The notes beneath the pieces were generated by a model. It was not told the DNA's origin. It did not search any database and saw only the letters and a list, made by a program, of their open reading frames with translations. The position numbers and the translations under genes were made by a program. From an uncultured Acidobacteriota bacterium (GTDB lineage Bacteria > Acidobacteriota > Terriglobia > Terriglobales > Acidobacteriaceae), in contig CAVYSS010000020.1 of the NCBI GenBank assembly GCA_963771195.1, forward strand, positions 43,486 to 107,485: DNA of 64,000 nt, given 5' to 3'. Below, in pieces: positions 7,918 to 50,987 of the stretch; the stretch's first letter is position 1, and each line of letters starts with the position of its first letter.

Positions 7918-8024
7918 GAATTTCTTAATGATCGCTGGAACCTTGCGGCAAACAAGATGCCTCCACTATCATCTCGCGGAGGGCGAAAGGACAATGGAGG
8001 CAGACTGGGAAAAGGAATTGGGGC

Positions 8025-13622: not shown

Positions 13623-13738
13623 GGAAGGCGCGGGCCGTTGCGCCTGCGGAACAGGCTACGGGCCGGGCGTGAGGGAAGTCAACGCGCTGCGGCCCGTTGT
13701 GACGAGGAGATGAGGCCCGATTGCGGATACGGGCCGGC

Positions 13739-14308: not shown

Positions 14309-14401
14309 GGGTTGGCCTCCTTTCGTTTTCTTGGATGCGGGAGGACGATATTCGTTGCAACAAGTATTTTGGCCCAGGTGTGTTTCAGATCTAAAGGTGT
14401 T

Positions 14402-15517
14402 TTACTCGCCGCCTTGTTTAACGAACAGCCGCGCCGCCAGCAGGATGGCCGCGCAGCCCATCACGGTGAGGATCGTGGCGTCGCGCCACAGGTCGGCGAA
14501 TCCGGCGCCGCGCAGGATGAGGCCGCGCAGGATGCGGATGTAATAGGTTGCCGGGATGAGCCGGCTGATGACCTGGAAGATGGGCGGCATGTTCTCGATG
14601 AGGAAGATGTAGCCGGAGAGAAACACTGACGGCAGGATGGTTCCCATGGCGAGCTGAAAGGCCTCGGCCTGGGTGCGCGCGCGGGTGGAGATGACGAGGC
14701 CGATGCCAAGCACTGTGAGCAGAAACGGCAGCGAGAGGACCAGCAAAACGATCACGCTGCCATGAATCGGGACCAGGAAGACCCAGCGCATCACGATGAG
14801 GATGGCGCAGAGCTCGCCGAATGCCAGCACGCCGTAGGGAATCATTTTGCCGAGCATCAATCCCAGCGGGGCCACCGGCGTCATGGTCAGTTGTTCCAGG
14901 GTGCCGCGCTCGCGCTCGCGCACCAGGCTCAGCGCGATCATGAGGATGGTCATGACCTGGAGCAGGATTCCGACGAGGCCGGGGACGAAGAAATTTGCCG
15001 AGCGCGTGGCCGGGTTGTAGAGCACGGAAGGCCGCACGTCTATGGGAATTTGGCCATCGGGGAGCACTTGCGCCAGCGATTCCTGCAGGGCAACGCCGGT
15101 GGCGGTGCTGACCGCCTGCGCGGCAACCGTGGAGTCGGAGCCATCGACCAGCACCAGCACCGTGGCCGTGTCACCGTCCTGGAGGCTGCGCGCGTAATCG
15201 GGCGGGATGCGCACGCCCACGCGCGCCTTGCCGCTGCGGATGGCATCGTAGAGCGCGTCCTTTGACTCGACGATCCCGCGCACGGCAAACACATCGGACG
15301 CCTCAAAGCGCTGCACCAGTTGGCGGCTATCCTGCGTCTGCGACTCGTCGAGAACGACGGTGGCGATCTGGCGGATGTTGGTGTCCACGGCAAAGCCGAA
15401 CAGGAACAGTTGCAGCATGGGGATGAGCAGGGCGAAGAACAGCGTGCCTGGATCGCGCACGATGTGCAGCGCCTCTTTGCGGCAAACCGGAACCAGACCG
15501 CGGAACAGGTGCTTCAT
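14402..15517 (-). CDS. ABC-2 type transporter permease (YbhR/YhhJ-like)
   Basis: 371 aa. N-terminal [24 protein letters not shown], a large periplasmic loop, then 5 C-terminal TM segments. 4-nt overlap with the ATPase gene. Confidence 0.9.
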
Positions 15518-32313: not shown

Positions 32314-32597
32314 TGTCGAGCTCCTGAACCCTCGCGTCCATCGATAAACGGACGACCAAACGCCTTCTCACAAACATAAAGGAAGTCGTCGACGCTTCTG
32401 CGCATCCGGGGCGCAGTGGCAACAGAAGATTGTCTTGGAAGAGCGAGATCAGGAGCACCTACCAAGAAAATCGTCCTTCTTCGTAGGAGTCATCTGCCCG
32501 AATGGGCGGTTATGGCGAACTCCAACGCCCGTGATTATTCTCGCACATCTTCGCCGGGTTATTCGTCGGCGGGAACGGGGACGATACCATTGAGCAG

Positions 32598-36394: not shown

Positions 36395-36640
36395 CTCAAG
36401 CCTCCATTCAAGCTGGAAGGAGAAAGCTGATCAAACGTTTTTCCAGAGCAGTTTTTGCTGCTTATGGAAAACGAATGTCGATTATACTCGCTGCATCCAG
36501 CATGTGAATCCAAAGGTCTCCGGGCCGGGAAAACCGCGGAGACATTGGTGTCCGAAATCATTGCCAACGGGGAACGGAGTGTGAGACGATTTCCGGTCTT
36601 CAATTCTCATTTCGGGCTCGCGCGAGGCGCCAGAAAGCTT

Positions 36641-38413
36641 ATGGCATATTCTCTTTTTCGGGGCAATATCTGTTTCCTATCCAGCCGCGATTTGCTCATT
36701 TCGACCGCTATTGCCGGCCTGCTGTTTTGCCCAGCCGTGCTGGTTCGCGCGACTGAGGCGGGGAGCACGGTGAACGCTGCCATCAAAGTGGACCAGGTGG
36801 GTTATCCCAGGGATGGGCCCAAGGTGGCGCTGGTGTCCGCGCCGGCGGATAGCTTTACGGTGCGCCGCTCCGGCGACGATCGGGCAGTGCTTCGCGGCAA
36901 ACTGATAGCCTCTGCCCCGGACGCGCTTTCCGGAGACACCGTCGCGGCCGCGGACTTTTCCTCGCTGCGCAAACCGGGAAAATACTACATCGAGGTTCCG
37001 AGTGTGGGGCGAAGCTGGGACTTCGCGATCGAGAAGAATGTCTATCGGCGTGCCTACTATCTGGCCATGCGCGGTTTCTACGGCCAGCGCTGCGGCACTG
37101 CGGTGGACATGGGGCCGGAGTTTCCCGAGTACAAGCACGCCGCCTGTCACCAGAAAGGCGAATTCCATCCCAGTTCAGGCGCCAGCGGGCCAAGGAACAA
37201 CATTGGCGGCTGGCACGACGCCGGCGACTATGGCCGCTACGTGGTCAACTCCGGAGTGACTACCGGCACCTTGCTGTGGACATGGGAGCTCTACCACAAA
37301 AAGCTCAAAGCTATCTCCCTCAGCATTCCGGAGAGCGGCAACGGAACGCCGGACATCCTGAATGAAACGCGCTGGAACCTGGAGTGGATGCTCAAGATGC
37401 AGGACGACGATGGGGGCGTCTGGCACAAGCAGACCAGCGAGCATTTTTCGGGATTTGTGGCGCCGGAGGACGACGATCTTCCCAGCGAGGTGATTGGGAC
37501 CGGAAAAGCGCCCTACAAGAGCACCTGCGCCACCGCCGACCTGGCGGCCGTGGGAGCAATCGCAGCGCGTGTCTATAAGCCGTTCGACGCGGCGTTTGCC
37601 GCGCGGACGCTGGAGGCGGCGCGCAAGGCGTGGGCCTGGGCGGAGAAGAGCCCCAACGTCACGTTCGTCAATCCGCCCGGCGTCAGCACCGGCGAATACG
37701 GCGACAACAACTGCGCCGACGAGCGGCTCTGGGCCGCGGCCGAGCTTTGGCGGACCACCGGCGAAAGGCCCTACAACGATTTTTTCGTCCAGGAGTATCG
37801 AAAGTACCTGCCCGATCTCGACTCGCCACCTGCAGAGGGCTGGAATTCTCTGGGCGCAATGGGTCTGTGGACATATGCGCTGGGCAAGCGCAAGGGTTCT
37901 GACCGCGACGCGATCAACGCGATTCGCGCGCGCACGGTGGCGGCGGCGCGTACGGTGGTGGATCGCACCAATGCAAACCCCTACCGCATGAGCATGCAGG
38001 CCGAGGATTATGTATGGGGCTCCAACGGCGTGGCCGCGGGTTATGGGATGTATCTGCTCATCGCCAACACGTTTCAGCCGGGTCGGAACTTCCGCGATGC
38101 TGCACGCGACAATCTGCATTATCTTCTGGGACGGAATACGTTCTCGCTCTCCTGGGTGACACAATTGGGCGAGCACTCCGTCGAGCATCCCCATCATCGG
38201 CCCAGCGGTTCCGGAAAGCAGCCGGGACCATGGCCGGGGCTGCTGGCCGGCGGGCCCAATCGAGGACGGCAGGACGCGGTGCTGGCGGCGCTGCCCAAGG
38301 ATTTGCCGCCGGCCAAAGTCTATGCCGACCAGTTGGCTTCCTACGCAAGCAATGAGATTGCGATCAACTGGCAGGCTTCGCTGGTGTTTTTGTTGGCGGG
38401 TGAATTGAAGTAG
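36641..38413 (+). CDS. Glycoside hydrolase family 9 endoglucanase with N-terminal Ig-like (CelD_N) domain
   Basis: Signal-like N-terminus. KVDQVGYPRDGPK Ig-like module. GH9 blocks GGWHDAGDYGRYV, ADERLWAAAELW, HHRPS. Confidence 0.9.
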   Translation: MAYSLFRGNICFLSSRDLLISTAIAGLLFCPAVLVRATEAGSTVNAAIKVDQVGYPRDGPKVALVSAPADSFTVRRSGDDRAVLRGKLIASAPDALSGDTVAAADFSSLRKPGKYYIEVPSVGRSWDFAIEKNVYRRAYYLAMRGFYGQRCGTAVDMGPEFPEYKHAACHQKGEFHPSSGASGPRNNIGGWHDAGDYGRYVVNSGVTTGTLLWTWELYHKKLKAISLSIPESGNGTPDILNETRWNLEWMLKMQDDDGGVWHKQTSEHFSGFVAPEDDDLPSEVIGTGKAPYKSTCATADLAAVGAIAARVYKPFDAAFAARTLEAARKAWAWAEKSPNVTFVNPPGVSTGEYGDNNCADERLWAAAELWRTTGERPYNDFFVQEYRKYLPDLDSPPAEGWNSLGAMGLWTYALGKRKGSDRDAINAIRARTVAAARTVVDRTNANPYRMSMQAEDYVWGSNGVAAGYGMYLLIANTFQPGRNFRDAARDNLHYLLGRNTFSLSWVTQLGEHSVEHPHHRPSGSGKQPGPWPGLLAGGPNRGRQDAVLAALPKDLPPAKVYADQLASYASNEIAINWQASLVFLLAGELK

Positions 38414-38438: not shown

Positions 38439-40323
38439 GTGATGCATCTCCGCGTATTGGATATCGCCATCATCGTGGCTTACCTGCTGAGCACGGTGTT
38501 CATCGGCTACTGGGTTTCCCACCGCGCCTCGCAGAACATACAGGACTATTTTCTGGGCGGCAACACGATGCCCTGGTACGTTCTGGGCGTATCCAATGCC
38601 TCCGGCATGTTCGATATCAGCGGCACCATGCTGCTGGTCTACTGGATGTTCGTCTACGGCCTGAAAAGCGTCTGGATCCCCTGGCTGTGGCCCACCTTCA
38701 ACCAGGTCTTCCTGATGGTCTACCTTTCGGCGTGGCTGCGCCGCTCCAACGTGATGACCGGCGCGGAGTGGATCAAGACCCGCTTCGGCAACGGCCGCGG
38801 CGCGCAGTTGTCCCACCTCATCGTGGTCATCTACGCCTTCGTCAGCATCATCGGATTCTTCAGCTACGGCTTCAAGGGCATCGGCAAGTTTGCCGCCACC
38901 TTCCTGCCCTGGCATCTCACGCCCAACCAGTACGCCCTGATTCTCGATCGCGCATCACCGCAATTTACGTCATCAAGGGCGGCATGTTCAGCGTGGTCAT
39001 CACCGAAGTGGTGCAGTTCTGCATTCTGTCCGTCGCCTCGTTTGCCGTCGGCATCATCGCCATGATGAAAGTGGCGCCGGAGACGCTGCACCGGATGGTG
39101 CCCGCCGGCTGGGACAACGTGTTCTTCGGCTGGCATCTCGGACCTGGACTGGTCAACGCTGATCCCCGCCGCCAGCGCCAAGATCGCCCAGGACGGCTAC
39201 GGCCTCTTCGGCTTCTTCGTCATGATGCTGCTCTTCAAGGGCGTGCTCATCAGCGCCGCCGGTCCGGCTCCCAACTACGACATGCAGCGCGTGCTCTCGT
39301 CGCAAGAATCCCGCGCGAAGCCTCCATGATGAGCGCGTGGGTAAACATCGTGCTCACCTTTCCCCGCTACTTCCTGATCACCGGGCTCACCGTGCTGGCC
39401 GCCGTGTTCTTCAGCGACAACATCCGCGCCATGGGCGCCAACATGGACTTCGAGCTGGTGCTTGCCCTATGCGCTCGGCCGGTTTGTGCCCGTGCGGGCT
39501 GCTGGGTTTCCTCATCGCCGGCCTGCTGGCCGCCTTCATGTCGAACTTCGCGGCCACCGTCAACGCCGCGCCGCCGTACTTCGTCAACGACATCTACAAG
39601 CGCTACATTCGCCCCGACGCGCCGCCCAAAACCTACGTTCGCCTTAGCTACATCAGCTCCTTTGCCGTTGTGGTGATCGGCGTCCTCATCGGATGGAACG
39701 TTACCTCCGTCAATTCCGTCGTGGTCTGGATCGTCTCCGGACTCTGGGGCGGCTACACCGCTTCCAACGTGCTCAAGTGGTATTGGTGGCGCTTTAACGG
39801 CTACGGCTACTTCTGGGGCATGGTCGCCGGCATCGCATCGTCGCTCTCGCTGCCGCTTTTCATTGCTAAGGTGCCGCTTGTTCAGCACCTGCTCGCCACC
39901 TATTCCATCAACGTGGACGTCTCCATCGTTTTCCCGCTGGTGCTCATCCTCTCGATCATCGGTTGCCTTGCCGGAACCCTGCTCACCAAGCCGGAAGACG
40001 AAGCCGTCCTGAAGGATTTCTACCGGCGGGTGCGGCCATGGGGCCTCTGGGGGCCCGTCCTCCAGAAGGTGCTGGCAGAAGATCCCGGCTTCAAGCGCAA
40101 CGCCGACTTCGCGCGCGACATGTTCAATATCGTCGTCGGAATTGTGTGGCAAATCGCCCTCGTGGTGTTGCCCCTGTACGTCGTCATTCAAGAATTTGAG
40201 CGCGCCGCCATCGCTTTATTCGTGGTCCTGGCCGCGTCGGCGATTCTCAAGTTCACTTGGTTCGACCACCTGGCGGTCCGCGAGGTCGAAACCGACAAGG
40301 CTGCATCTGCAGCAGGATCCTGA
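38439..40323 (+). pseudogene. Sodium:solute symporter family transporter, disrupted by at least 5 frameshifts
   Basis: SSF-like protein sequence can be followed only by switching frames. Frame 0 runs to about 38945 (..TPNQYALIL). Frame 2 follows (ITAIYVIKGGMFSVVITEVVQF..GWHL). Frame 0 resumes at about 39140 (DLDWSTLIPAASAKIAQDGYGLFGFFVMMLLFKGVLISAAGPAPNYDMQRVLSS). Frame 2 resumes at about 39303 (PREASMMSAWVNIVLTFPRYF..NMDFELVL). Frame 0 resumes at about 39460 (PYALGRFVPV). Frame 1 runs from about 39490 (GLLGFLIAGLLAAFMSNF... to the end). Confidence 0.85.
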
Positions 40324-40565
40324 AGCCGGATCTTGCCCGAAGGGTTGTAAGCGAGTTGGGCACGGCGGAGCTGCATGAGGTGAATACAGCCTTTTGCCGT
40401 GCCGAGAGTGCGTACTGAAGCCGCGCTGCCCGGGTGACGTACAAGTTCGGCGCAATCGTCGTGTCAGGTGGCTTTGTGATAGCTCAGCGCAGAAGAGACT
40501 GCTGACTTATCAGGGTTCTCCTTCCGTGATCCTGTGATCACGATCACCTACAAGAGCCACTGCTG

Positions 40566-41363
40566 GTGACGGTTCCGTTCGGAGTCTCGCGTGAGTTCAC
40601 GGAAAGACTCTCCGCAGGGTTCTCCTTTGTTCCTGCGCTCTCGATGCTGCAGGTCATACCGGCGCCATTTTCCCCGCCGGTGATGGCGGGCAGCACGATG
40701 CCCTACTACCTCTCGGCGGGAAACAACGCACCCGCTTCGGGCATGGGTGCAAGTGCGGGAGTGCACTATGCCGCAGGGCCGATCAGCATCGGTGTTTCCT
40801 GGCGGTCACCGGTCTGGTTTCAAAAGTTCACCTGGAACCGCGAAGACCTGACCGGTGTATCCCATACGATGCACTTTCACATGGACCTGCCCCAGGTCGT
40901 ATCCGTGGGAGCCGGAATTGTCGCCCGCAAAGGCACACTGATTGGTGTCGATTTGCGCTGGTTTGACTACGCCAATACCGCCGGATTCGATAAGGTCGGA
41001 TACAACCCCGATGGTTCCCTCGCCGGTTTTGGATGGCGCAACATCTGGGCGGTTGGCGGCGGTATTCAGCAAAAGGTCGGTTCCTCAACCAAGCTGATGC
41101 TCGGCTACAACTACTCCGGAAATCCGATCCCGGCTGAGTACACGTTCTTCAACACGCCGGCTCCTGCCATCGTGCAGCATCACGTCTCCGGCGGCATTAT
41201 CCAGCACATGCGTGGGTGGGACGCCATGGCGACGTACTATCACGCCTTCCAGAATTCGATCACCGGCCCGTGGATTTCCGCTAAGGGGCCCATCCCGGGT
41301 ACCAGCGTAACCAGCAAAATGTCGGAAAACTCCGTAACGATCGGTTTCGGAAAGAGCTTTTAG
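40566..41363 (+). pseudogene. FadL/TodX-like outer-membrane beta-barrel, N-terminally truncated fragment
   Basis: Alternating beta-strand pattern and terminal ...SVTIGFGKSF (C-terminal Phe) typical of OMP transport proteins. Only 265 aa, no signal peptide, and an in-frame stop at 40527 just upstream. Confidence 0.5.
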
Positions 41364-41482
41364 TAAGCAGCGGGCGAACTGGGGAAGAGGTGCGAGGGTT
41401 CGCCCTCGTTGCTCCCGCTCTCGATTCTGTCCGCGAATGTTGCCTTGCAATCGGGCGGTGGAGAAGGTTGCCAATCGGGGAG

Positions 41483-42052
41483 ATGCTGGAAATGACGCCT
41501 AACGCTCGAACGGCAGACTTCGACGAACAACCAGACCGCGTCCTGCACGGAGCGGAAAGGCATGAGCCGGTGATTGCTGCGCGTGGATTGCTGTACAGTC
41601 AGGGCGATCTGCGACGTTCGCTTTCGCCGGCGTCGGTTTTCCGCCCCGCGTCGCGGCGCCTGTTCTTGAAAACGGGAATTACCTCTCTCGGTGCTCTCGC
41701 GCTCTGGATCATGGACCGGATAGCCTGGGATGCAGAGTCGATTCCTGAAAACTCGGAGACGACGCTCACCGTGTCCTGGAGTGCGGCGCAGGCGATTCAC
41801 TTTTACGACCCGATGATCGTCGTCAACCGTACAGACGCGGTCGCTGTCTTTTCATCCCAATGCCCGCACTTGGGCTGCCGGGTCAACCGAACCGAGGGCA
41901 GGGAGCTCGTCTGCCCCTGTCACGGTTCGCGATTCGACCTGGGCGGAAACGTTGTGCACGGTCCGGCAGCGCGGGGATTACGTTCTTTGCCGTTTGCGCT
42001 CGACCGTGCCAAAGCCGCGCTCCGCGTCACGCTGGGGAGCAGCCAGACGTGA
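41483..42052 (+). CDS. Rieske [2Fe-2S] protein with Tat-like signal anchor
   Basis: SRRLFLKTGITSLGALALW twin-Arg-like anchor. Cluster boxes CPHLGC and CPCHGS. Start uncertain (ATG 41390/41483/41492). Stop overlaps the cytochrome b start (GTGA). Confidence 0.88.
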   Translation: MLEMTPNARTADFDEQPDRVLHGAERHEPVIAARGLLYSQGDLRRSLSPASVFRPASRRLFLKTGITSLGALALWIMDRIAWDAESIPENSETTLTVSWSAAQAIHFYDPMIVVNRTDAVAVFSSQCPHLGCRVNRTEGRELVCPCHGSRFDLGGNVVHGPAARGLRSLPFALDRAKAALRVTLGSSQT

Positions 42053-43560
42053 AGCGCACGAATCCCAGCCTTTGGCGACGCATTCCGGGGATGGGAATGC
42101 TGGCCCTTGCTGCCTTTGTCCTGTGTGCCGCAACGGGCATCATGCTCGTACCCGCGTATCGCCCGTCGACGGCCCTCGATTCGCTCGCCCTTCTGTCGCT
42201 AAAAAACCCCGCGGGAGTCTTCGCGCGCAGTCTGCACTACTGGTCGGCGCAGGCGTTCCTGGTCCTCATGCTGGCACACGTTGTGGATCATCTGCTGCGC
42301 CACAGCGAAAGGCTCGTGCGCTTTGGGGTTTGGCTGCGTCTGGTGCTGACGATCCCGGTCATCGCCGCCATCTTGCTTTCGGGCTTTCTGCTGCGTGCGG
42401 ATGCAGCGGCCCAGCAGGCGCTTCCCGTGTTGAGGACACTGCTCGGCCTGATCCCGTTCGCCGGCGCGGCCATGCAACGGCTGCTCACCGGCACGGGTGC
42501 CGACCTCTCTACTATCTATCTTCACCACGCCTGTACCGCCACTCTGGTCATCTGGCTCGTCACTGTGGAACACACTCGGCGCATCCTGCCAGCGGTACAG
42601 TCGCTCGCGTGCATCGCGGTCCCGACCCTCCTACTTTCATTTTTTCTGGTACCCGGTCTGGAATGGCGCACGGCAGCGGTCGAAAAGGGACCATGGTACC
42701 TGGTCGGCCTGCAGGAGTTTCTGCACTGGCTGCCTCGCCCTCAGCTCGCTGTCTGGATTGGCGGCCTGGTTCTGGTGTTGCTGATCTTGTTGCCGGGATT
42801 CCCATCCCACATCCACCTCGCCCCTCGATACGCACTCGGCACCGTCGTGCTGTTCTATGTTGCGCTCACCCTGATCGGACTCACCTTGCGCGGCGATGGC
42901 TGGCGATGGACATCCCCCGCCACGGTTCTGGCCGGCGAAGCTGACTTTCTTTCTTACCGCGCCTACATCCCTCCCGCCAGAGGATTCGTGGAGACCAGCG
43001 TCCCCCTGATTAACGGCCAGCGCGAAGGATGCCTATCGTGCCACGGAAAGATGACCGGATTCGTCGCCGCCCATGATCCCGCAACGATCGGCTGTGCTGC
43101 CTGCCATTTCGGCAATCCATGGACGCTGGACAAGAAGCTCGCCCACGCCGGCATGACTCTCATGCCTGGCGATCTCTCGGTCGTTGCGCAGACCTGTGGC
43201 GCCCCCAACTGCCATACCGACCAGGCGCAGCGCGTGCACGCCTCGGTGATGAACACGATGAGCGGCGTCGTGGCGATAGACAAGTTTGCCTTTGGTGAAA
43301 ACACCGAACTCGACGCGCGCTACGACCTGGCGGCTTTGAAACATACTGCTGCCGATACCCATCTGCGCAACCTCTGTGCGTCCTGTCATCTCGGCCAGGG
43401 CAAGAGCCATCCCGGCCCCATCAACGAGACGGACCGCGGCGGGGGCTGCTCGGCTTGCCATCTCCGGTACGATCCCTCTGCCGCTGACGAATTGCGGGCA
43501 CGCCCGGCATCCGCCGCGCCTTTGCATCATCCGGATATTTCTGTCCATGTTCCGAAGTAG
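42049..43560 (+). CDS. Cytochrome b (b6/subunit IV-like) fused to multihaem cytochrome c, N-terminal part up to an in-frame TAG
   Basis: GTG 42049. Haem-b His pairs in LHYWSAQAFLVLMLAHVVDH and IYLHHACTATLVIWLVTVEH. PEWY-like GPWYLVGLQEFLHW. Then CLSCH, CAACH, CGAPNCH (CX4CH), CASCH, CSACH. Ends at TAG 43558-43560. Confidence 0.85.
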   Translation: MKRTNPSLWRRIPGMGMLALAAFVLCAATGIMLVPAYRPSTALDSLALLSLKNPAGVFARSLHYWSAQAFLVLMLAHVVDHLLRHSERLVRFGVWLRLVLTIPVIAAILLSGFLLRADAAAQQALPVLRTLLGLIPFAGAAMQRLLTGTGADLSTIYLHHACTATLVIWLVTVEHTRRILPAVQSLACIAVPTLLLSFFLVPGLEWRTAAVEKGPWYLVGLQEFLHWLPRPQLAVWIGGLVLVLLILLPGFPSHIHLAPRYALGTVVLFYVALTLIGLTLRGDGWRWTSPATVLAGEADFLSYRAYIPPARGFVETSVPLINGQREGCLSCHGKMTGFVAAHDPATIGCAACHFGNPWTLDKKLAHAGMTLMPGDLSVVAQTCGAPNCHTDQAQRVHASVMNTMSGVVAIDKFAFGENTELDARYDLAALKHTAADTHLRNLCASCHLGQGKSHPGPINETDRGGGCSACHLRYDPSAADELRARPASAAPLHHPDISVHVPK

Positions 43561-43740
43561 GCCTGCTTCGGCTGCCACAGCCGGTCCGGACGCATTGCAA
43601 CCAGCTATGAGGGCTGGCACGAGACGCTAATAGACGAAAAGGCGGCGCAGGCGTCCCCGGGATGGCCCGCGCAGTTTCGCGTCCTCGGGGATGGACGCGT
43701 CTTCGAAAAACACGCTGCCGACATTCATGCGGATAAGGGT

Positions 43741-44808
43741 ATGACGTGTATCGACTGCCATCAGGCATCCGAAGCGATGGGCGATGGCGCGACCCATGCC
43801 CATGAACGCGATGCCATCAAAATCGCCTGCGTGGATTGCCATGCCGTGCGCAAGACCGCAGCGAAAGAGTATGGCGAGCTCGACTCCGAGACGCAGCAAA
43901 TCGTCGCGATGCGCCGGTTGAACGAACCCGGCCGCAAGTTCGTGGTCAGCGAATCCGGAGCCGCGGCCTATCCAAATATGTTTCTCGACCATGGCGGACG
44001 TCCCGTGCTCTCCGTGATGGACTCCACAAAAGTCCTGAAGCCGAAACCGATGGCCGAAGCGTGCACCGCAGCCATGCATCAGAGGCTGGAGTGTTCCGCC
44101 TGCCATACCCCATGGACTCCGCAGTGCATTTCCTGCCACACCTCCTTCAACCGGAGTACACAGGGCTGGGATTATCTCGCGGGCAAGTATGTTGATGGCG
44201 AATGGCAGGAAGAGCCGGCTAACTATCTGAGCGACGCGCCCGCACTTGGCATCGAGCGCATCTCCTCGTCCGACGGTAAATCAGCAGAACGCATCACCAC
44301 CTTCATCCCCGGAATGATTCTGCACCTGGACATCCCTGTCGGTGCTCGAAAAAACCAACCTGAATTCCGTCGCCTTTTTGCTCCCGCCTCGGCGCACACG
44401 ACAGCGACCCGGGCCCGGGACTGCCGATCCTGCCATACCAATCCAGCAGCCCTCGGCTACGGACGAGGCCAACTCAAATATGTCGTCACGGGTCGAACGG
44501 CTGCGTGGCGGTTCACCCCGCAATTTGCCAGCAGCCCGGAAGATGGTCTGCCGTCCGATGCCTGGATCGGCTTCATGCAGGAGCCCAGCGGACGTTCGGC
44601 CACACGCAAAGGGGCCCGCCCGTTCTCGCTCGATGAGCAGCAAAGGATCCTCCAAGTCGGCGCCTGTCTTGCTTGTCACAACGAGAAGGACCGCCGCGTT
44701 GCCCGGGTCTTCGCGAATTTCAAAGACTATCGCTCAACCCTCAGCCCGCAATGCTTCCTCCCCGCGTGGCCGGATCGATCTCCTCTGCTTGCAGGACCAA
44801 CACAATGA
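43741..44808 (+). CDS. Multihaem cytochrome c segment (same frame as 42049..43560; probably its continuation from 43561)
   Basis: CIDCH, CVDCH, CSACH, CISCH, CRSCH, CLACH. No signal peptide at ATG 43741. The 180 nt between the TAG and this ATG are open in the same frame and encode a further CFGCH (43564-43578). Confidence 0.8.
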   Translation: MTCIDCHQASEAMGDGATHAHERDAIKIACVDCHAVRKTAAKEYGELDSETQQIVAMRRLNEPGRKFVVSESGAAAYPNMFLDHGGRPVLSVMDSTKVLKPKPMAEACTAAMHQRLECSACHTPWTPQCISCHTSFNRSTQGWDYLAGKYVDGEWQEEPANYLSDAPALGIERISSSDGKSAERITTFIPGMILHLDIPVGARKNQPEFRRLFAPASAHTTATRARDCRSCHTNPAALGYGRGQLKYVVTGRTAAWRFTPQFASSPEDGLPSDAWIGFMQEPSGRSATRKGARPFSLDEQQRILQVGACLACHNEKDRRVARVFANFKDYRSTLSPQCFLPAWPDRSPLLAGPTQ

Positions 44809-44860
44809 CATCTCGAATCAATTCCGTAAGTACCACATCGAGAGAAAGGCAACCGTCCCG

Positions 44861-47050
44861 ATGATGAACCTTTCCCGTCGACGCTTCCTGAAGATCGGTG
44901 CCGGAACCATGGCCGCAGCCGGCTCGCTGGATGCCTCGCTTCGTGTACTGGCCGGGTCCGGCAAGCATGCTGAGCGCGGCACTCGCGCGGTGCCGACGTT
45001 CTGCAATCTCTGCTTCTGGGAGTGCGGCGCCATCGCTACTGTTCGCGACGGCAAGTTATGGAAGATTGAAGGCAATCCGCTCGATCCCCTGTCCCGCGGC
45101 CGCCTTTGCCCCCGCGGCACTGGCGGAATCGGTGCGCATTTCGATCGCGACCGCCTTCGTTCTCCGCTCCTCCGTGTGAGCAAGCGCGGCGAGGAAAAGT
45201 GGAAGGCGGTCACCTGGGATGAGGCGCTCAGCTTCGTTGCGGACAAGATGCAGAAGATCAAGGCGCAATATGGACCGGAGTCTTTCGCAGCGTTCATCCA
45301 CGGCCTGGGCGGACGGTTCTTCAAACACACGCTTCGCGCTTATGGAACAGAGAACATTGCGGCTCCCTCGTTTGCGCAGTGTCGTGGACCCCGCGATGTC
45401 GGCTTTACGCTCACCTTCGGTGACGGTGTGGGTTCCCCGGAGAGAACCGATATCGCAAACGCCCAGTGCATCGTTTTGATCGGATCTCACATTGGCGAGA
45501 ACATGCACAACACTCAGGTGCAGGAATTTGCAGAGGCTGTAGGAAACGGCGCAAGCATCATCGTGGTCGACCCGCGCTTCTCCGTTGCCGCCAGCAAGGC
45601 CAAATTTTATCTTCCCGTAAAACCCGGCACCGATTTGGCACTGCTGCTCGCCTGGATGAATGTCATCGTCAGCGAAAATCTTTACGACAAGGATTACGTC
45701 GATCAGTACGGTTTCGGCTTCGAGCGGTTCACGGCAGAGATTCAGGCCTTCACGCCGGAATGGGCATACCCGGAAACCGGCATCGATCCCGACCTGATTC
45801 GCGCAACTGCCCGCGAGATGGCGCGCTATCGCCCCGCAACGCTCATCCATCCCGGACGCCACTCCAGCTGGTATGGCGACGACGCCCAGCGCAGTCGCGC
45901 CATCGCCCTGCTGAACGCACTGATGGGCAGTTGGGGGCGCAAAGGTGGCCTTTATATGCCTGCGGAGATGGAAATTCCGGGCTATCCCGTTCCGGCGTAT
46001 CCGAAGTCGAAGAGGCCGCCGGTCGACAATCCCAACAACAAATATCCATTCGCGGATGAAGCGATCAGCACCGGAATCCGCGAAGCCACCTTGACCGGCG
46101 CGCCCTATCCGATCAAAGGCTGGCTGGTCTACGCGACCAATCTCCTCTATTCTCTGCCCAATCAGGCCGAGACAATTCGAGCGATTCAGAATCTCGATCT
46201 GTTCGTCGTTGTCGATACGATTCCGAGCGAGATCGCCTGCTGGGCGGATGTGGTTTTACCTGAATCGATCTATCTGGAACGTTACGACGAGCTACACTCC
46301 GAACCTTTCCGGCAATCCTTTATCGCGCTGCGCCAGCCTGTCGTCGATGCGCCCGGAGACCAGAAGCCAAACTGGTGGATCGCCAAAACGCTCGCGGAAA
46401 AGCTGGGACTAAGCGCGTACTACCCGTGGAACAACATCGGGGAGTATCTTGCGGCGCGCCTCAAAGCGGCCGGCTATAGCTTCGAAGACCTGAAGCGCGA
46501 CGGCGTTCTGCTCGGCCCGCAACGGCCCATATACTTCGAAGACGGAGCGCCGGCTGTGTTCGACACGCCGTCAAAGAAGATCGAGTTTTATTCGCTGCAA
46601 CTGCAGAAAGCCGGCTTCGATCCCGTTCCCAAATACACGCCTCCAGACCCGCCGCCGGAAGGTTCCTATCGGCTGCTGTTCGGCCGCGCCCCGATGCACT
46701 CCTTCAGCCGTACCCAGACCAATCCTCTGCTCGTGGACCTGCAGAGCGAGAACTCGGTTTGGGTCAATAAGGGAGAGGCGCAAAGACTCGGACTGAAGAG
46801 CGGGGACTATATCCGTCTTCGCAATCTCGACGGTCAGGTAAGCAACAGGATTCTTGTCAAGGCTACGGAACGCATTCGTCCGGATTGCGTGTACATGACC
46901 CATGGCTGGGGACATACATCGAAGGAGCTTCACAGCGCCTTCGGCAAAGGCGCGAGCGATTCGCAGCTGATTACGCGCTATAAGACGGACCCATTAATGG
47001 GCGGCACAGGTATGAACGTGAATTTTGTCACGCTCGAGACGGAGGTCTGA
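44861..47050 (+). CDS. Tat-exported molybdopterin (bis-MGD) oxidoreductase catalytic subunit, Psr/Phs/Ttr-like
   Basis: MMNLSRRRFLKIGAGTMAAAGS Tat signal. N-terminal 4Fe-4S box CNLCFWEC...CPRG. Molybdopterin oxidoreductase and C-terminal dinucleotide-binding blocks (..VWVNKGEAQRLGLKSGDYIRL.., ..VYMTHGWGH..). Confidence 0.9.
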   Translation: MMNLSRRRFLKIGAGTMAAAGSLDASLRVLAGSGKHAERGTRAVPTFCNLCFWECGAIATVRDGKLWKIEGNPLDPLSRGRLCPRGTGGIGAHFDRDRLRSPLLRVSKRGEEKWKAVTWDEALSFVADKMQKIKAQYGPESFAAFIHGLGGRFFKHTLRAYGTENIAAPSFAQCRGPRDVGFTLTFGDGVGSPERTDIANAQCIVLIGSHIGENMHNTQVQEFAEAVGNGASIIVVDPRFSVAASKAKFYLPVKPGTDLALLLAWMNVIVSENLYDKDYVDQYGFGFERFTAEIQAFTPEWAYPETGIDPDLIRATAREMARYRPATLIHPGRHSSWYGDDAQRSRAIALLNALMGSWGRKGGLYMPAEMEIPGYPVPAYPKSKRPPVDNPNNKYPFADEAISTGIREATLTGAPYPIKGWLVYATNLLYSLPNQAETIRAIQNLDLFVVVDTIPSEIACWADVVLPESIYLERYDELHSEPFRQSFIALRQPVVDAPGDQKPNWWIAKTLAEKLGLSAYYPWNNIGEYLAARLKAAGYSFEDLKRDGVLLGPQRPIYFEDGAPAVFDTPSKKIEFYSLQLQKAGFDPVPKYTPPDPPPEGSYRLLFGRAPMHSFSRTQTNPLLVDLQSENSVWVNKGEAQRLGLKSGDYIRLRNLDGQVSNRILVKATERIRPDCVYMTHGWGHTSKELHSAFGKGASDSQLITRYKTDPLMGGTGMNVNFVTLETEV

Positions 47051-47052
47051 AC

Positions 47053-47592
47053 ATGTACCGTTTCGCCATGGTTATCGATACGCGGAGGTGCGTGGGCTGC
47101 CACGATTGCGTGGTGGCCTGCAAGACTGAAAACGGCGTTCCGGAAGGCTACAGCCGCGACTGGATCGCGGAAGAGGTCCACGGCGCTTTTCCCACTCTGC
47201 AGATGGAGATCCGTTCGGAACGATGCAATCACTGCGACAATCCTCCGTGCGTCTCCTGCTGCCCGACCGGAGCAAGTCATATCCATGAGCAGGGCGGCGT
47301 GGTGCTGGTCGACCACGACAAATGTATTGGCTGCAAAGCCTGCATCGCGGCATGCCCTTATGACGCACGCTTCATTCATCCGGACGGCTATGTCGACAAA
47401 TGTACCTTCTGCATCCACCGCGTCGAGCGCGGCCTTGATCCGGCCTGCGTTTCCGTCCGCCCCACGCACTGCATGCACTTCGGAGATATCGACGATCCGC
47501 AGTCCGAAGTGAGCCAGTTACTTAACTCGCGCCCGTATCACGCACTGTTGCCGGAAGCGGGAACCAAACCATGCATCTTCTATCTGACTTAG
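47053..47592 (+). CDS. Four-cluster 4Fe-4S ferredoxin subunit (PsrB/DmsB-like)
   Basis: CVGCHDCVVAC, CNHCDNPPCVSCCP, CIGCKACIAACP, CTFC...ACVSVRP. The last cluster has Arg where CP is expected (see findings). Confidence 0.92.
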   Translation: MYRFAMVIDTRRCVGCHDCVVACKTENGVPEGYSRDWIAEEVHGAFPTLQMEIRSERCNHCDNPPCVSCCPTGASHIHEQGGVVLVDHDKCIGCKACIAACPYDARFIHPDGYVDKCTFCIHRVERGLDPACVSVRPTHCMHFGDIDDPQSEVSQLLNSRPYHALLPEAGTKPCIFYLT

Positions 47593-47598
47593 GCAAAC

Positions 47599-48651
47599 AT
47601 GAACACACTTACTGAATTATCTTTGTCTCGACACAATCCGCTGGTAGATCCGACCCTTGATGTCTGGCAATGGCAAATCCCGATCTACCTCTTTCTGGGC
47701 GGACTGGTTGCCGGGTTGATGATCATCGCCGGCGTACGGCTTATCACAATTCGCCCCACACAGCGCGAGGCCCTTGTGTGTTGCACCATCGGACCCCTGG
47801 CCGGTCTGGCATTCCTCAGTCTCGGTATGTTCGTGCTGTTTCTCGACCTGTCCCACAAGCTCTATGTCTGGCGACTCTATACCACATTGCAGATTACTTC
47901 GCCGATGTCCTGGGGCTCGTGGATTCTGCTTTTGGTCTATCCCGCCCTGGCCGCGAATGCGCTGGCTCATCTCCCGGAGGCTGTTCCAGCACTGGCGAAG
48001 CGCTTTCCTGTTTTGACTACATGGAGCGACTTCATCCTGTCCCGCACACGTCTGGTGGTGGCTATTGGCATCGCCAATGTCCTGGTAGGAATTGGCCTCG
48101 GTATTTATACCGGCATCCTTTTGGGTACGCTTGGCGCGCGCCCGCTCTGGAACAGCGCCCTGCTTGGCCCGCTCTTCCTGTTCTCCGGTCTCTCAACAGC
48201 AGCTGCGCTGCTGCATGGGATTCTGGTTCTCTCTTCTTCCGGGGAAGAGCTGCCAGGGTTCGCCGACTTCCTGCTCTCCTCTCTCACGCGGCTGGCTCAG
48301 GCGCGGCCGCTCGATCAAGGGGCCGCCCCGGTCCTGGCGGGCGCTGACAACAGCTTCCTCACCATTGAACTGGGCATCCTCAGTCTGTTCCTGATCGGCC
48401 AGCTTACATCGACCGCAGTTCATCAGCAAGCCGCCTCGCTTCTTCTCAGCGGCCCCTATGCAGCTGTCTTCTGGATCTTCGTAATCTCTCTGGGCATCGT
48501 TTTGCCCCTCATCCTGCAAACGCTCGAGTTGCAGAATTCCATTCGCCACACGCTGGCGCCGGCTGTTCTTGTCATTTTCGGCGGACTTGCACTTCGCTTC
48601 ATTCTTGTCTACGCAGGCCAGCAAAGCCATTGGTTTCATGCAGTGAATTAA
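47599..48651 (+). CDS. NrfD/PsrC-family integral membrane quinol-interacting anchor
   Basis: 350 aa with about 8-9 TM helices. N-terminal WQWQIPIYLFLGGLVAG motif typical of NrfD-like subunits. Immediately follows the FeS subunit. Confidence 0.88.
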   Translation: MNTLTELSLSRHNPLVDPTLDVWQWQIPIYLFLGGLVAGLMIIAGVRLITIRPTQREALVCCTIGPLAGLAFLSLGMFVLFLDLSHKLYVWRLYTTLQITSPMSWGSWILLLVYPALAANALAHLPEAVPALAKRFPVLTTWSDFILSRTRLVVAIGIANVLVGIGLGIYTGILLGTLGARPLWNSALLGPLFLFSGLSTAAALLHGILVLSSSGEELPGFADFLLSSLTRLAQARPLDQGAAPVLAGADNSFLTIELGILSLFLIGQLTSTAVHQQAASLLLSGPYAAVFWIFVISLGIVLPLILQTLELQNSIRHTLAPAVLVIFGGLALRFILVYAGQQSHWFHAVN

Positions 48652-48665
48652 CGGAGGAAGAATTC

Positions 48666-49196
48666 ATGAATTCGGAACAACAAACTCCCCAGCCCTACTG
48701 GAATTCTTATTGGGCTGGATTTGGACTTGGCCTCGTGTTACTGGCCTCCTTCGTCATTATGGGACGCGGACTGGGAGCGTCAGGCGCTTTCACGACCGTC
48801 GTCGCCGCTGCGGTGCACCAGATTGCCCCGGCGCATGCCGAAAATAGTCCCTTCTACTCTGAGTATCTCGGCGACGGCTCGCGCAGCCCTCTCAAGGACT
48901 GGCTGGTATTCGAAGTTCTGGGAGTCTTTGTCGGCGGCTTTCTCTCCGGTGTCCTCGCCAATCGGTTGAAGCTCACGGTGGAACAAGGCCCTCGCAGCAC
49001 GACGGTCCGCCGCCTTGCTTTTGCATTTGTGGGCGGAGGCCTGATGGGTATTGGCGCAAAGATCGCTCTCGGCTGCACCAGCGGTCAGGCGCTTACTGGC
49101 GGCGCCCTGCTCAACGTCGGCAGCTGGGTCTTTATGTGGTGTGTATTCGGCGGCGCCTACGCGGTGGCTTACTTCTTCAGAAAGCAATGGATCTGA
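48666..49196 (+). CDS. YeeE/YedE-family sulfur-compound transport protein (half-size)
   Basis: ATG after GGAGGAAG. GRGLGASGAFT and ALGCTSGQALTGG motifs characteristic of YeeE/YedE. Confidence 0.8.
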   Translation: MNSEQQTPQPYWNSYWAGFGLGLVLLASFVIMGRGLGASGAFTTVVAAAVHQIAPAHAENSPFYSEYLGDGSRSPLKDWLVFEVLGVFVGGFLSGVLANRLKLTVEQGPRSTTVRRLAFAFVGGGLMGIGAKIALGCTSGQALTGGALLNVGSWVFMWCVFGGAYAVAYFFRKQWI

Positions 49197-49197
49197 T

Positions 49198-50460
49198 ATG
49201 AATGCTCCCTTCTACAAATTCGGACTCTTCGGCGACGAGGCTAGCTTCGTCATCGCCTTCCTCATCGGCATTGGCTTTGGGTTCTTCCTTGAACGGGCCG
49301 GCTTCGGCAGCGCACGCAAGCTCGCATCGCAGTTCTATCTCTGCGACCTGAGCGTTCTGAAGGTGATGTTTACCGCGATCATCACGGCAATGACCGGTCT
49401 CTATGTGTTTTCGCGCCTGGGCATGCTGGATCTGTCGCTCGTCTACTTAGTTCCTACTTTCCTCGTACCTCAAATCGTCGGAGGCCTTCTGCTCGGTGTC
49501 GGCTTTGTTATCGGCGGCTATTGCCCTGGCACTTCGTGTGTCTCCGCCGCTACCGGCCGCATCGATGGCATGGTCTACCTTTTGGGAATGGTCGCGGGGC
49601 TCCTCGGTTTCGGCGAAGTCTACCCTCTGATTGTCGGTTTCGCTCATTCCACCTCGATGGGGCAGATCACTCTCCCGAAGCTCTTCGACCTCCCCTATGG
49701 GCTTCTGGTTTTTGCAGCCGTGCTGATGGCTCTGGGAGCATTTGCGGCCGGTGAGTGGGCAGAGAAAAGGTTTGGAGGCAAGCTGCCCGATCCCGAAGGA
49801 TCGATCATCGGCGGAAGCCGTAGGCTCACGCCCGTTCGCGCGCTTGCGTTGAGCCTGGCGGTGATCGGACTCTTTGCCGCCTTCGCGGGCGACCCCTACC
49901 GCGGCCATCACGCGACCATCGGCACCAGGGATCTCCAGATGCGCGTCGGGAAAGGAGCGGATCTGATTGAGCCGGTGCAACTCGCAGACTGGATCATCCA
50001 GGACCGAAATGATTTTCGCCTCGTCGACTTGCGCCAGCAGAAGGACTACAACGCCTATCACATTCCCGCGGCAGAGAATTTCCCTCTGGCTTCCCTGACA
50101 CCGGACTTTGCTGCACACAACGAAAAAATCCTCCTCTGCTCAGATGACAGCCTGGAAGCGGCGAAAGCTTGGTTTCTACTGGATGCACAGGGATTCAAAT
50201 CGGTCTATGTCCTGAGCGGTGGCATGCAGGGCTGGAAAGATTTCGTGCTCTTTCCGATTAAGCCGCAAGGAACCACCGATTCAGCCTTCGAACGACAGGC
50301 ACAGGTAGCGAAGTTCTTTGGCGGCGCACCGAAGGCAGCCAATACCCAAGCCTCGACCGCCGCGATGCCTGCACTTCCCAGGGTGGCGCCGCCTTCTGTA
50401 CCCGCTGCACCGCCGACAACGAACGCAGCGCCGCCTAGGAAAAAGAAAGAAGGCTGCTGA
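49198..50460 (+). CDS. YeeE/YedE-family membrane protein fused to a C-terminal rhodanese-like domain
   Basis: ERAGFGSARK and GGYCPGTSCVSAATG YeeE motifs. Rhodanese-like FRLVDLRQQKDYNAYHIPAAENFPL...ILLCSDDSLEAAKAWFLLDAQGFKSVYVLSGGMQGW with an atypical active-site loop (CSDDSLE). Pro/Ala-rich tail. Confidence 0.8.
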   Translation: MNAPFYKFGLFGDEASFVIAFLIGIGFGFFLERAGFGSARKLASQFYLCDLSVLKVMFTAIITAMTGLYVFSRLGMLDLSLVYLVPTFLVPQIVGGLLLGVGFVIGGYCPGTSCVSAATGRIDGMVYLLGMVAGLLGFGEVYPLIVGFAHSTSMGQITLPKLFDLPYGLLVFAAVLMALGAFAAGEWAEKRFGGKLPDPEGSIIGGSRRLTPVRALALSLAVIGLFAAFAGDPYRGHHATIGTRDLQMRVGKGADLIEPVQLADWIIQDRNDFRLVDLRQQKDYNAYHIPAAENFPLASLTPDFAAHNEKILLCSDDSLEAAKAWFLLDAQGFKSVYVLSGGMQGWKDFVLFPIKPQGTTDSAFERQAQVAKFFGGAPKAANTQASTAAMPALPRVAPPSVPAAPPTTNAAPPRKKKEGC

Positions 50461-50522
50461 GAAAATTCTGCTCCCGGTTTCCTTGGCGCGGAGGCAGCGA
50501 AAGCAAGGTTGAGAGGCGAACC

Positions 50523-50987
50523 ATGATCATCCGCCACCTGTTTATCTCTCCCGGTCATAACTTCTTCGGTCACCATGGCCAGGCCGCGGGAAAAAATACC
50601 CTCTGCACCATGAACGAGATTGAGTGCGTTGCCGGGCACGGCGTCAGCGGGGATCGTTTTTACGATTACGGCGACAACTACAAAGGACAAATCACATTCA
50701 TAGCCAGCGAAGTATTCGAGGACGTCTGCCGGCGCTTGGGGGTGCAACTGAAATCCCCGGGCGTTGCCCGCCGCAATGTCGTCACGGCCGGAATCGATCT
50801 GAACTCCCTCATCGGCAAGACCTTCACCATTCAGGATGTGGAGTTCGAAGGGGTCTGCGAATGCAAGCCCTGCTACTGGATGGACTCCGCTATCGCACCG
50901 GGTGCGGAGAAAGCATTGCAGGGACGCGGCGGATTGCGCGCGAGAATCCTCTCCCGCGGCAGGCTCAGAGTCGGGGTTGCCCTGTGA
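50523..50987 (+). CDS. MOSC-domain protein
   Basis: GDRF...ITFIASEVFEDVC...ARRNVVTAGIDLNSLIGKTFTI.DVEFEGV.ECKPC resembles the MOSC beta-barrel with its conserved Cys. Confidence 0.75.
   Translation: MIIRHLFISPGHNFFGHHGQAAGKNTLCTMNEIECVAGHGVSGDRFYDYGDNYKGQITFIASEVFEDVCRRLGVQLKSPGVARRNVVTAGIDLNSLIGKTFTIQDVEFEGVCECKPCYWMDSAIAPGAEKALQGRGGLRARILSRGRLRVGVAL

Follow-up and report, generated by a model that had tools for sequence, protein, structure and literature searches.

The region analysed here lies in a 64,000-nucleotide stretch of DNA (the window) from an uncultured member of the Acidobacteriaceae (assembly GCA_963771195.1, contig CAVYSS010000020.1), in which nine genes at 41483-50987, all on the forward (+) strand, encode a Rieske protein, a cytochrome b fused to a 12-haem cytochrome c, a molybdoenzyme of the PsrABC type, two YeeE-type membrane proteins, the second of which carries a rhodanese-homology domain, and a MOSC-domain protein. 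On comparison with its relatives this region is the Acidobacteriaceae copy of a widespread and horizontally mobile respiratory module, in which a Rieske/cytochrome b/12-haem unit is kept next to a Psr-YeeE-rhodanese unit in at least four phyla. Full-text literature searches returned no description of a Rieske/cytochrome b/12-haem linkage with Psr-YeeE-rhodanese genes, and since the modules are individually known only their linkage seems to be new to the literature.

Conserved linkage of the two units

One genome per species was scanned for relatives of the cytochrome b/12-haem fusion, which we found to be encoded in 214 species. Loci were taken from the best 80 of these species, their neighbourhoods were determined by tblastn and clustering of open reading frames (ORFs), and counts were made over the 44 loci whose sequence extends 9 kb or more to each side. 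A PsrA ORF lies no more than 10 kb from the cytochrome b/12-haem gene in 38 of the 44 (39 counting a frameshifted copy in locus L002), and in nearly all loci linked in this way genes for PsrB, PsrC, two YeeE-type proteins and a rhodanese come after that for PsrA. The lineages that keep the linkage are Acidobacteriota, Ignavibacteria, Bacteroidota and Verrucomicrobiota, and there are three gene orders among them. The units are collinear in Acidobacteriota and also in Ignavibacteria (a metagenome-assembled genome of Melioribacter roseus and the isolate Rosettibacter primus), where a MerR gene stands between them, the Psr-YeeE operon is divergent from the Rieske-cytochrome genes in Bacteroidota, and it comes first in Lacunisphaera (Verrucomicrobiota). 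This conserved synteny shows that the juxtaposition of the modules is not a matter of chance.

Loci found from PsrA or stand-alone-cytochrome homologues indicate how the cluster is built. In L084, L087 and L089 the genes run PsrABC-YeeE-YeeE-rhodanese, in some cases followed by MOSC, the last gene encodes a 12-haem cytochrome of 641-665 amino acids (aa), and there is no Rieske/cytochrome b, while the Chlorobiaceae locus L086 has the Psr unit without the cytochrome. From the existence of both cytochrome-bearing and cytochrome-free loci that lack Rieske/cytochrome b, the core unit is taken to be PsrABC with the split YeeE and the rhodanese, the 12-haem cytochrome being a frequent partner and the Rieske/cytochrome b an add-on that would tie the cytochrome to the quinone pool. 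The proposal of the first-pass annotation that two quinone-coupling modules and a set of sulfur-trafficking genes belong together is thus upheld by the survey across four phyla and three gene orders and by the 12-haem cytochrome found in Psr operons elsewhere. The physical supercomplex and single transcription unit that it also put forward stay conjectural, the modules being divergent in Bacteroidota and separated by MerR in Ignavibacteria. Its remark that this was not a described system holds for the linkage, which seems to be unreported, but not for the parts, as the Rieske/cytochrome b/12-haem unit is homologous to the Geobacter Ext proteins, its cytochrome b falls in the GPWY clade already published and the M. 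roseus Psr orthologue had been studied.

The M. roseus locus (MROS_1773-1776) is orthologous to that of the window, with a PsrA 65% identical and the order Rieske, cytochrome b/12-haem, MerR, PsrABC, YeeE, YeeE, rhodanese. It differs from the acidobacterial cluster, which has no MerR gene, has its YeeE fused to the rhodanese and has an added MOSC gene. The M. roseus papers describe a Psr operon of three genes and three subunits and a genome said to have no cytochrome bc genes, MROS_1771 and MROS_1772 are not listed in the published Melioribacter proteome tables, and the Ignavibacterium paper treats Psr alone.

Profile searches with Pfam confirm that the nine co-directional genes carry the domains first assigned to them, and the gaps or overlaps between them do not exceed about 62 nucleotides. 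Scans for promoters, terminators and sigma-54 sites performed no better than on shuffled sequence, with no site 5' of the cluster, and are therefore uninformative on operon structure, and an Rfam search found no riboswitch, for the molybdenum cofactor (Moco) or otherwise, near the cluster.

The Rieske/cytochrome b/12-haem unit

The Rieske [2Fe-2S] protein (41483-42052; PF00355, E 4.6e-12) is ExtO-like, with the cluster-binding boxes CPHLGC and CPCHGSRF and an RRLFLK motif followed by a transmembrane (TM) segment. Its start codon at 41483 is uncertain, homologues being 125-145 aa long, and among 70 homologues the S-F signature is present in 53 and S-Y in 16. The gene that follows (42049-44808; PF00033) encodes a cytochrome b of ExtP/ExtQ-like GPWY type fused to an ExtM-like 12-haem cytochrome c, and most likely starts at the GTG at 42049, which gives a GTGA overlap with the Rieske stop codon that is the same in relatives. 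The Qo motif is GPWY, as in 59 of 81 homologues (GPWF in 15), and the histidine pairs H63/H77 and H160/H175 are invariant in the alignment with the spacing of the b6 type. Ignoring the stop codon described below, the cytochrome has 11 CXXCH motifs and one CX4CH motif, and 74 of 76 full-length homologues are uninterrupted with the same 11+1 haem motifs; in about 80 species the gene runs on without a break.

For the window and Melioribacter proteins the scores against NCBIfam Ext models are 177-250 bits for ExtM (cut-off 800), 61-67 for ExtP (290) and 22 for ExtQ (150), the window protein itself scoring 61 bits with ExtP and 177 with ExtM. The Melioribacter fusion covers positions 18-594 of the 599 of the ExtM profile and matches ExtP and ExtQ too. 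By these matches the Rieske/cytochrome b/12-haem unit is classed as a fused homologue of Geobacter ExtO/P/Q/M. In common with the extHIJKLMNOPQS cluster of Geobacter sulfurreducens it has a Rieske protein (ExtO), a short b6-like cytochrome b (ExtP), a subunit-IV-like segment (the membrane subunit ExtQ) and a 12-haem cytochrome (ExtM). Unlike in Geobacter the ExtP, ExtQ and ExtM equivalents form one polypeptide, with scores far below the equivalog cut-offs, none of the partners ExtH, ExtI, ExtKL, ExtN and ExtS is encoded in the window, and PsrABC-YeeE genes adjoin the module, whereas the Ext cluster as published has none. The Geobacter cluster encodes a rhodanese lipoprotein (ExtH) and a porin (ExtI), and its function is unsettled in the literature.

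Its motifs place the cytochrome b in the published GPWY clade (Kao and Hunte 2014), with which it shares the GPWY/GPWF Qo motif, a Rieske partner of S-F or S-Y type and fusion to a c-type cytochrome. In that study the Ignavibacterium album cytochrome b fusion was recorded as carrying a trihaem c7, with no genomic context or function given, and the partner Rieske proteins of the clade were predicted to be of mid-to-high potential. In contrast to the trihaem c7 description we count 12 haem motifs, and Psr genes are a conserved part of the neighbourhood.

The PsrABC molybdoenzyme

PsrA (44864-47050) is a predicted Tat-exported catalytic subunit binding bis-molybdopterin guanine dinucleotide (bis-MGD), with the domains PF10518 (TAT_signal), PF04879 (Molybdop_Fe4S4), PF00384 (Molybdopterin) and PF01568 (Molydop_binding), a Tat signal MNLSRRRFLK and an N-terminal FS0 [4Fe-4S] motif ahead of the bis-MGD domains. 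It aligns over its full length with Thermus thermophilus PsrA (2vpw_A; E 1.3e-213, about 55% identity), which scores 714 bits in a search of the Protein Data Bank (PDB) against 219 for the next match. The cysteine of the segment FAQCRGPRD aligns with that of the Thermus segment SLCTAPRE, which we take to be the molybdenum ligand of the Thermus enzyme, a cysteine being the Mo ligand throughout the PsrA/PhsA/SrrA lineage; the ligand is thus kept in the window. With NCBIfam the protein scores 494 bits against PhsA (cut-off 694, not reached), 150 against ArrA (cut-off 1600), 70 against TtrA and 68 against AioA, and the Melioribacter orthologue scores 524 bits with the PhsA model. The profile and PDB scores place PsrA nearest to the PsrA/PhsA/SrrA lineage and not with Arr, Ttr, Aio, Dms, Nap or Fdh. 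Members of this lineage reduce polysulfide, thiosulfate and selenite, tetrathionate is reduced by a Psr homologue, and substrate within the lineage is not readable from sequence.

PsrB (47053-47592; PF13247) is a four-cluster ferredoxin and PsrC (47599-48651; PF03916, E 4e-36) an NrfD-type membrane anchor. A PDB sequence search with PsrC alone gave no match and its profile matched Thermus PsrC weakly (E 6e-4), with an invariant tyrosine aligned to Thermus Tyr130, which presumably has a role in the quinol-binding anchor. The three subunits resemble Thermus PsrABC (2vpw) in having a full-length PsrA with Tat signal, FS0 motif and Mo-ligand cysteine, a four-cluster PsrB and an NrfD-type PsrC. They differ in that the window PsrC is 350 aa long with faint similarity to the 253-aa Thermus protein, and in that the operon always goes on to the two YeeE genes and the rhodanese with its cysteine tail, and usually has a 12-haem cytochrome as well.

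A molybdopterin-family subunit, four-cluster ferredoxin, NrfD anchor and multihaem cytochrome c are also encoded together in alternative complex III and Qrc. Their molybdopterin-like subunit lacks the cofactor, unlike PsrA here, and both complexes were ruled out as identities for the cluster on the kept Mo site, the 55% identity to an active reductase and a QrcB score of 145 bits against 440.

Across Acidobacteriota, Ignavibacteriales, Chlorobiaceae, Verrucomicrobiota and Bacteroidota PsrA is 70-73% identical, compared with 37-41% for the partner cytochrome and 35-50% for PsrC, which suggests strong constraint on PsrA or its lateral transfer.

Split YeeE, cysteine-tailed rhodanese and MOSC protein

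The YeeE-type protein is encoded in two parts, the first gene (48666-49196, or from an alternative TTG start at 48630; PF04143 profile positions 174-309) resembling the C-terminal half of YeeE/TsuA and the second (49198-50460; PF04143 profile positions 2-197, and PF00581) its N-terminal half with a rhodanese-homology domain. The first aligns with residues 233-326 of Spirochaeta thermophila YeeE, a stretch that includes the GC(x)xG cysteine motif; the motif equivalent to that of the channel cysteine C293 is thus found by alignment, and the equivalent of C91 by motif alone (GGYCPGTSC). A PDB sequence search with the N-half-like part gave no match, the NCBIfam TsuA score is 44 bits against cut-offs of 400-645, and both halves give weak NCBIfam matches to the selenium protein YedE/FdhT. 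The likeness to the YeeE/TsuA-YeeD/TsuB systems of S. thermophila and Escherichia coli lies in the Sulf_transp fold and in the GC(x)xG motifs with their cysteines. In contrast to those systems there are two genes with the C-half-like one first, and in place of the TusA-like YeeD, of which there is no homologue in the cluster, the partner's position in the operon is taken by a rhodanese with a C-terminal cysteine that is probably periplasmic.

The second protein runs from its YeeE half through an extra TM helix to the rhodanese-homology domain, a Pro/Ala-rich linker and a terminal KKKEGC. The rhodanese is fused to YeeE in Acidobacteriota, a separate single-TM protein in Ignavibacteria and present as two tandem single-TM paralogues in Bacteroidota. 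At the classical active-site column 60 homologues have Tyr (40), Cys (12), Phe (6) or Ile (2); the window protein is among those with Cys, here within an acidic loop, ILLCSDDS. Lacking a conserved active-site cysteine in a loop of the CRxGx[RT] type, the domain is probably non-catalytic. By contrast a C-terminal GC is present in 59 of 59 membrane-tethered rhodanese homologues, where it comes after a Pro/Ala-rich linker and a run of lysines; the tail motif [RK]KKK..GC is invariant in the window and its homologues among L004-L089, and the window copy PRKKKEGC (50434-50457) ends in a putative swinging-arm carrier cysteine. A basic loop before the TM helix, together with the cytoplasmic C-terminus of YeeE implied by the solved YeeE-YeeD fusion, suggests that the rhodanese domain is periplasmic.

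The carrier arm of SoxY ends in the motif GGCGG. The tail described here is like it by analogy only, as a lone invariant cysteine that ends a flexible tail in a periplasmic sulfur-redox system with c-type cytochromes and a molybdoenzyme; it differs in sitting on a rhodanese-homology domain after a lysine run.

The last gene of the cluster (50523-50987) encodes a stand-alone MOSC-domain protein (PF03473, E 1.6e-10, 41.5 bits against a cut-off of 22.7) that matched no NCBIfam family. About 12 acidobacterial loci, and also L084 and L087, have a MOSC gene after that for the YeeE-rhodanese.

State of the window copy

The cytochrome b/12-haem fusion noted in the first-pass annotation stands as regards its motif counts and GPWY, but in the window it is not one ORF. 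Inspection of the reading frame reveals an in-frame TAG at 43558-43560 (+), with five motifs before it (four CXXCH and the CX4CH) and seven CXXCH after it, so that the cytochrome is truncated after 5 of its 12 haem motifs. At this site L004, the closest relative, has GAG, and other relatives have GAA, CAG, CAA or GAC. On this comparison the TAG is a single G-to-T nonsense change at a variable residue or else a base error. Recoding of the TAG, as pyrrolysine or by read-through, was ruled out because the site is a variable Glu/Gln/Asp codon that is GAG in the nearest relative.

A further point change, Cys136Arg, is found in PsrB, where codon 47458-47460 reads CGC and relatives have TGC or TGT. 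It falls within the CVSVCP cluster motif, at a residue that is Cys in each of 26 homologues, and the window protein keeps 15 of the 16 cluster-ligand cysteines. General decay of the cluster was considered and rejected, as the Rieske protein, cytochrome, PsrA, PsrC and first YeeE protein of the window have no singleton deviations at invariant columns and PsrB C136R is the only deviation that stands out there.

The closest relative is Acidobacterium sp. palsa_291, whose locus L004 is 85% identical in DNA sequence over 10.4 kb, window 40561-50971 aligning with L004 8511-18972. The window lacks about 2.4 kb that L004 has at 6137-8511, the breakpoint region being window 40328-40566 against L004 5898-8511. 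The missing stretch holds a sigma-54 activator gene (L004 6158-7765) and the 5' part of an outer-membrane gene of FadL/Toluene_X type, whose 3' remnant is left in the window at 40566-41363 (+). The remnant was recognised by homology: in relatives an outer-membrane gene lies before Rieske, the remnant shares 67-91% identity with the C-terminal part of it, and its L003 homologue carries PF03349.

With the TAG, PsrB Cys136Arg, the lost sigma-54 activator gene and an outer-membrane gene without its 5' end the window copy of the cluster may be non-functional. Alternatively, some or all of these lesions may be assembly faults and not recent inactivation. The gene list first drawn up for this region was sound in content but had overlooked the in-frame stop, PsrB Cys136Arg, the missing regulator gene and the unconventional nature of the rhodanese.

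Two frameshifts divide a sodium:solute symporter gene at window 38439-40323 among three reading frames (SSF profile positions 1-102, 130-170 and 286-406) and mark either a pseudogene or assembly indels. Clustered disruptions in P0002, P0004 and P0006 had raised the idea of a gene-fission hotspot, which we rejected; they are most likely assembly indels, as they occur on long-read contigs with genes broken throughout.

Neighbouring genes in relatives

The genes that accompany the module in other genomes point to sulfur-type chemistry. Bacteroidota loci have TauE, a type III sulfide:quinone reductase (SQR; above cut-off), DUF1641, TusE/DsrC, DsrE2, MobA and Crp/Fnr genes, and Acidobacteriota loci have PadR, a CoA-disulfide-reductase-rhodanese, a sigma-54 activator and a FadL-type outer-membrane protein. 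MerR or ArsR-type regulators lie near other loci and an ArsP_1 permease near some. ExtI-like porins and ExtH-like periplasmic rhodaneses, both weak matches, adjoin the module only in Bacteroidota and Verrucomicrobiota relatives. The suggestion, made from the window alone, of a sulfur-compound (or selenium or arsenic) substrate therefore fits the accessory genes of the relatives, namely periplasmic rhodaneses, an ExtI-like porin, TauE, type III SQR, DsrE2 and TusE.

In some Bacteroidales the type III SQR, DUF1641, TusE/DsrC-like and DsrE2-like genes lie directly 3' of the cytochrome gene (L036 13541-16381, and similarly in L030, L037 and L056). Genes 5' of Rieske in L002, L003, L007, L011 and others include PadR, a Nitro_FeMo-Co-domain protein, a CoA-disulfide-reductase fused to a rhodanese, a 4HBT thioesterase and the sigma-54 activator. 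On the acidobacterial contig of L001 a reverse transcriptase of group II intron type (13663-14610; RVT_1, GIIM) is found between the cytochrome gene and PsrA.

Elsewhere in the window the symporter is adjoined at 33950-38413 by a GH94 cellobiose-phosphorylase-type gene (-) and a GH9 cellulase (+), in keeping with a cellulose-degrading member of the Acidobacteriaceae. A fluoride riboswitch (RF01734, 49 bits, E 1e-10) at 32477-32538 (-) lies upstream of a dynamin-family GTPase gene (30562-32313, -), which is not a usual fluoride-regulated gene, and at 56428-60549 (-) there is a gene for a 1372-aa protein with NHL/teneurin-type beta-propeller repeats and chitobiase C-terminal, Fn3-associated and Ig-like domains.

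Proposed function and alternatives

We propose, as a reading that we judge to have an even chance of being correct, that the cluster encodes a periplasmic reductase system for chalcogen compounds with two links to menaquinone, one through PsrC and the other through the haem wire and Rieske/cytochrome b. A sulfur-type (or selenium-type) substrate would be captured and passed on by the cysteine arm and the YeeE channel, and would be reduced at the molybdenum site of PsrA. The iron-sulfur chain of PsrB would exchange electrons with menaquinone directly via PsrC, and may also be reached through the 12-haem wire, itself linked to menaquinol by a Q-cycle-type reaction of Rieske/cytochrome b, with contact between haems and PsrB and flow of electrons towards it both presumed. 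The Q-cycle route would allow energy-conserving reduction of the more oxidising substrates such as tetrathionate, selenite and perhaps arsenate, and the PsrC route would serve the low-potential substrates polysulfide and thiosulfate. A Rieske protein of mid-to-high potential would be unable to drive the reduction of polysulfide or thiosulfate, and the haem route would thus fit tetrathionate, selenite and arsenate better. Rieske/cytochrome b complexes have been cited as electron sources for periplasmic reductases in Campylobacter and Wolinella.

A more elaborate version, drawn by analogy with SoxY, seems to us rather unlikely. In it the dead rhodanese with its lysine-flanked terminal cysteine would be a covalent carrier of sulfane sulfur, thiosulfate or selenium, shuttling its load between the active site of PsrA, the pore of YeeE, the 12-haem cytochrome and a channel in the outer membrane, and together with the Rieske/cytochrome b fusion would make up an unrecognised carrier-based respiratory chain for Q-cycle-coupled chalcogen reduction, with PsrB as a three-way junction between quinol site, Mo site and haems.

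Several points weigh against the proposed reductase system. Coupling of the haem wire to Psr is in every organism a prediction from gene linkage, and about 5 of the 44 well-flanked loci as well as the Chlorobiaceae locus L086 have one unit without the other. A double input through PsrC and Rieske/cytochrome b looks redundant. The Pro at position 2 of the Qo motif is common to the APWY clade, where it is linked to reverse operation, and electrons may flow in the direction opposite to that proposed. The periplasmic location of the rhodanese is read from the positive-inside rule and the presumed cytoplasmic C-terminus of YeeE alone. The AlphaFold model of the 12-haem cytochrome is confident (pLDDT 82.6, pTM 0.80), and a Foldseek search with it found no relative in the PDB (best E 1.6), which gives no hint of a catalytic haem enzyme fold. 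The window copy bears two potentially inactivating point changes. Finally, what is known of the physiology of an orthologue comes down to induction by arsenate in M. roseus, which is no pointer to sulfur.

Other explanations have to be set beside the proposed reductase system. Respiration or detoxification of selenite or tellurite, by an Srr-like enzyme with the rhodanese arm and a YeeE/YedE-like channel handling selenium and an Ext-type module supplying high-potential electrons, would account for the weak YedE/FdhT matches of the YeeE halves and for the predicted mid-to-high Rieske potential, which suits the selenite couple. SrrA is in the same lineage as PsrA and PhsA, rhodanese-like genes beside Psr-type genes have been used in published work as a marker of selenite reducers, and the best NCBIfam names for the cytochrome b, 12-haem cytochrome, porin and periplasmic rhodanese come from the Geobacter 'selenite/tellurite reduction operon', in which deletion of extI lowers reduction of both selenite and tellurite. 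We nevertheless hold it to be unlikely, as all Ext and YedE scores are far under the cut-offs of their families, a part for Ext in the reduction of selenite is known from the porin mutant only, the SQR, DsrE2, TusE and TauE neighbours in relatives favour sulfur, and the cluster is very common in heterotrophs of peat, sediment and groundwater, which are selenium-poor settings. The case for arsenate comes from M. roseus, in which the psrA transcript (MROS_1774; psr/phsA) is negligible without arsenate and strongly raised with it, no Arr is present and the enzyme was proposed to be the arsenate reductase; locus L026 places this gene in the same type of cluster, and ArsR-type regulators and the ArsP_1 permease occur near some loci. 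The electrons for ArrAB of Shewanella come from a multihaem quinol oxidase. A respiratory arsenate reductase, whose As(V) reduction the Rieske/cytochrome b/12-haem unit would make electrogenic, has in our view only a slight chance of being right: the evidence is of induction only, which the adjoining Cys-rich MerR could bring about by sensing arsenite as a thiol-reactive stressor, the ArrA model gives 150 bits against 1600, and there is no obvious role in it for YeeE, the cysteine arm or the sulfur-relay neighbours.

The electrons might instead run in an oxidative series, with PsrABC oxidising reduced sulfur (for example sulfide to polysulfide) and passing electrons to menaquinone, and Rieske/cytochrome b re-oxidising menaquinol and handing them through the 12 haems to an acceptor in the periplasm or outside the cell. 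Such a series explains why a quinone-reducing and a quinol-oxidising module should share one cluster adjoined by a long haem wire and outer-membrane channels, and it has parallels in the greater abundance of Ext proteins on Fe(III) oxide in Geobacter and in the reverse action of Psr as a sulfide dehydrogenase suggested for some Epsilonproteobacteria. Yet the cluster has neither an outer-membrane cytochrome nor a terminal oxidase linked to it, and where an operon has the 12-haem cytochrome on its own, without Rieske/cytochrome b, a series via the quinone pool is impossible. In M. roseus it is an electron acceptor that induces the orthologue, acetate being the donor, and the characterised members of the lineage are reductases. 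Together these points make the oxidative series decidedly unlikely. That the units are independent respiratory modules, sharing only a mobile island or a regulator, would agree with the genomes in which each unit is found without the other, with divergent transcription in Bacteroidota, with a regulator gene between the units in Ignavibacteria and with the self-sufficiency of Thermus PsrABC. We regard this as very unlikely given that adjacency survives three rearrangements, four phyla and a fall in cytochrome identity to 37-41%, and that the 12-haem cytochrome without cytochrome b is the last gene within Psr operons.

Significance of the linkage

The Rieske/cytochrome b complexes with multihaem partners, both those of the GPWY clade and Geobacter Ext, are given a testable physiological context by the linkage described here, and if the carrier-based chain were true the same logic would explain the Geobacter Ext cluster and the cytochrome b complexes of the GPWY clade. 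The linkage also bears on the Psr/Phs-type enzymes of soils and sediments, which genome annotations routinely present as self-contained reductases of three subunits. The account of a Melioribacter 'arsenate reductase', in which the neighbouring genes were not considered, merits re-examination, and with Melioribacter roseus and Rosettibacter primus as cultured carriers of the cluster experiments are feasible. More broadly the linkage suggests a route by which the abundant polysaccharide-degrading Acidobacteriota, Bacteroidota, Ignavibacteria and Verrucomicrobiota may enter cryptic sulfur or selenium/arsenic cycling, and how energy could be conserved in such reductions.

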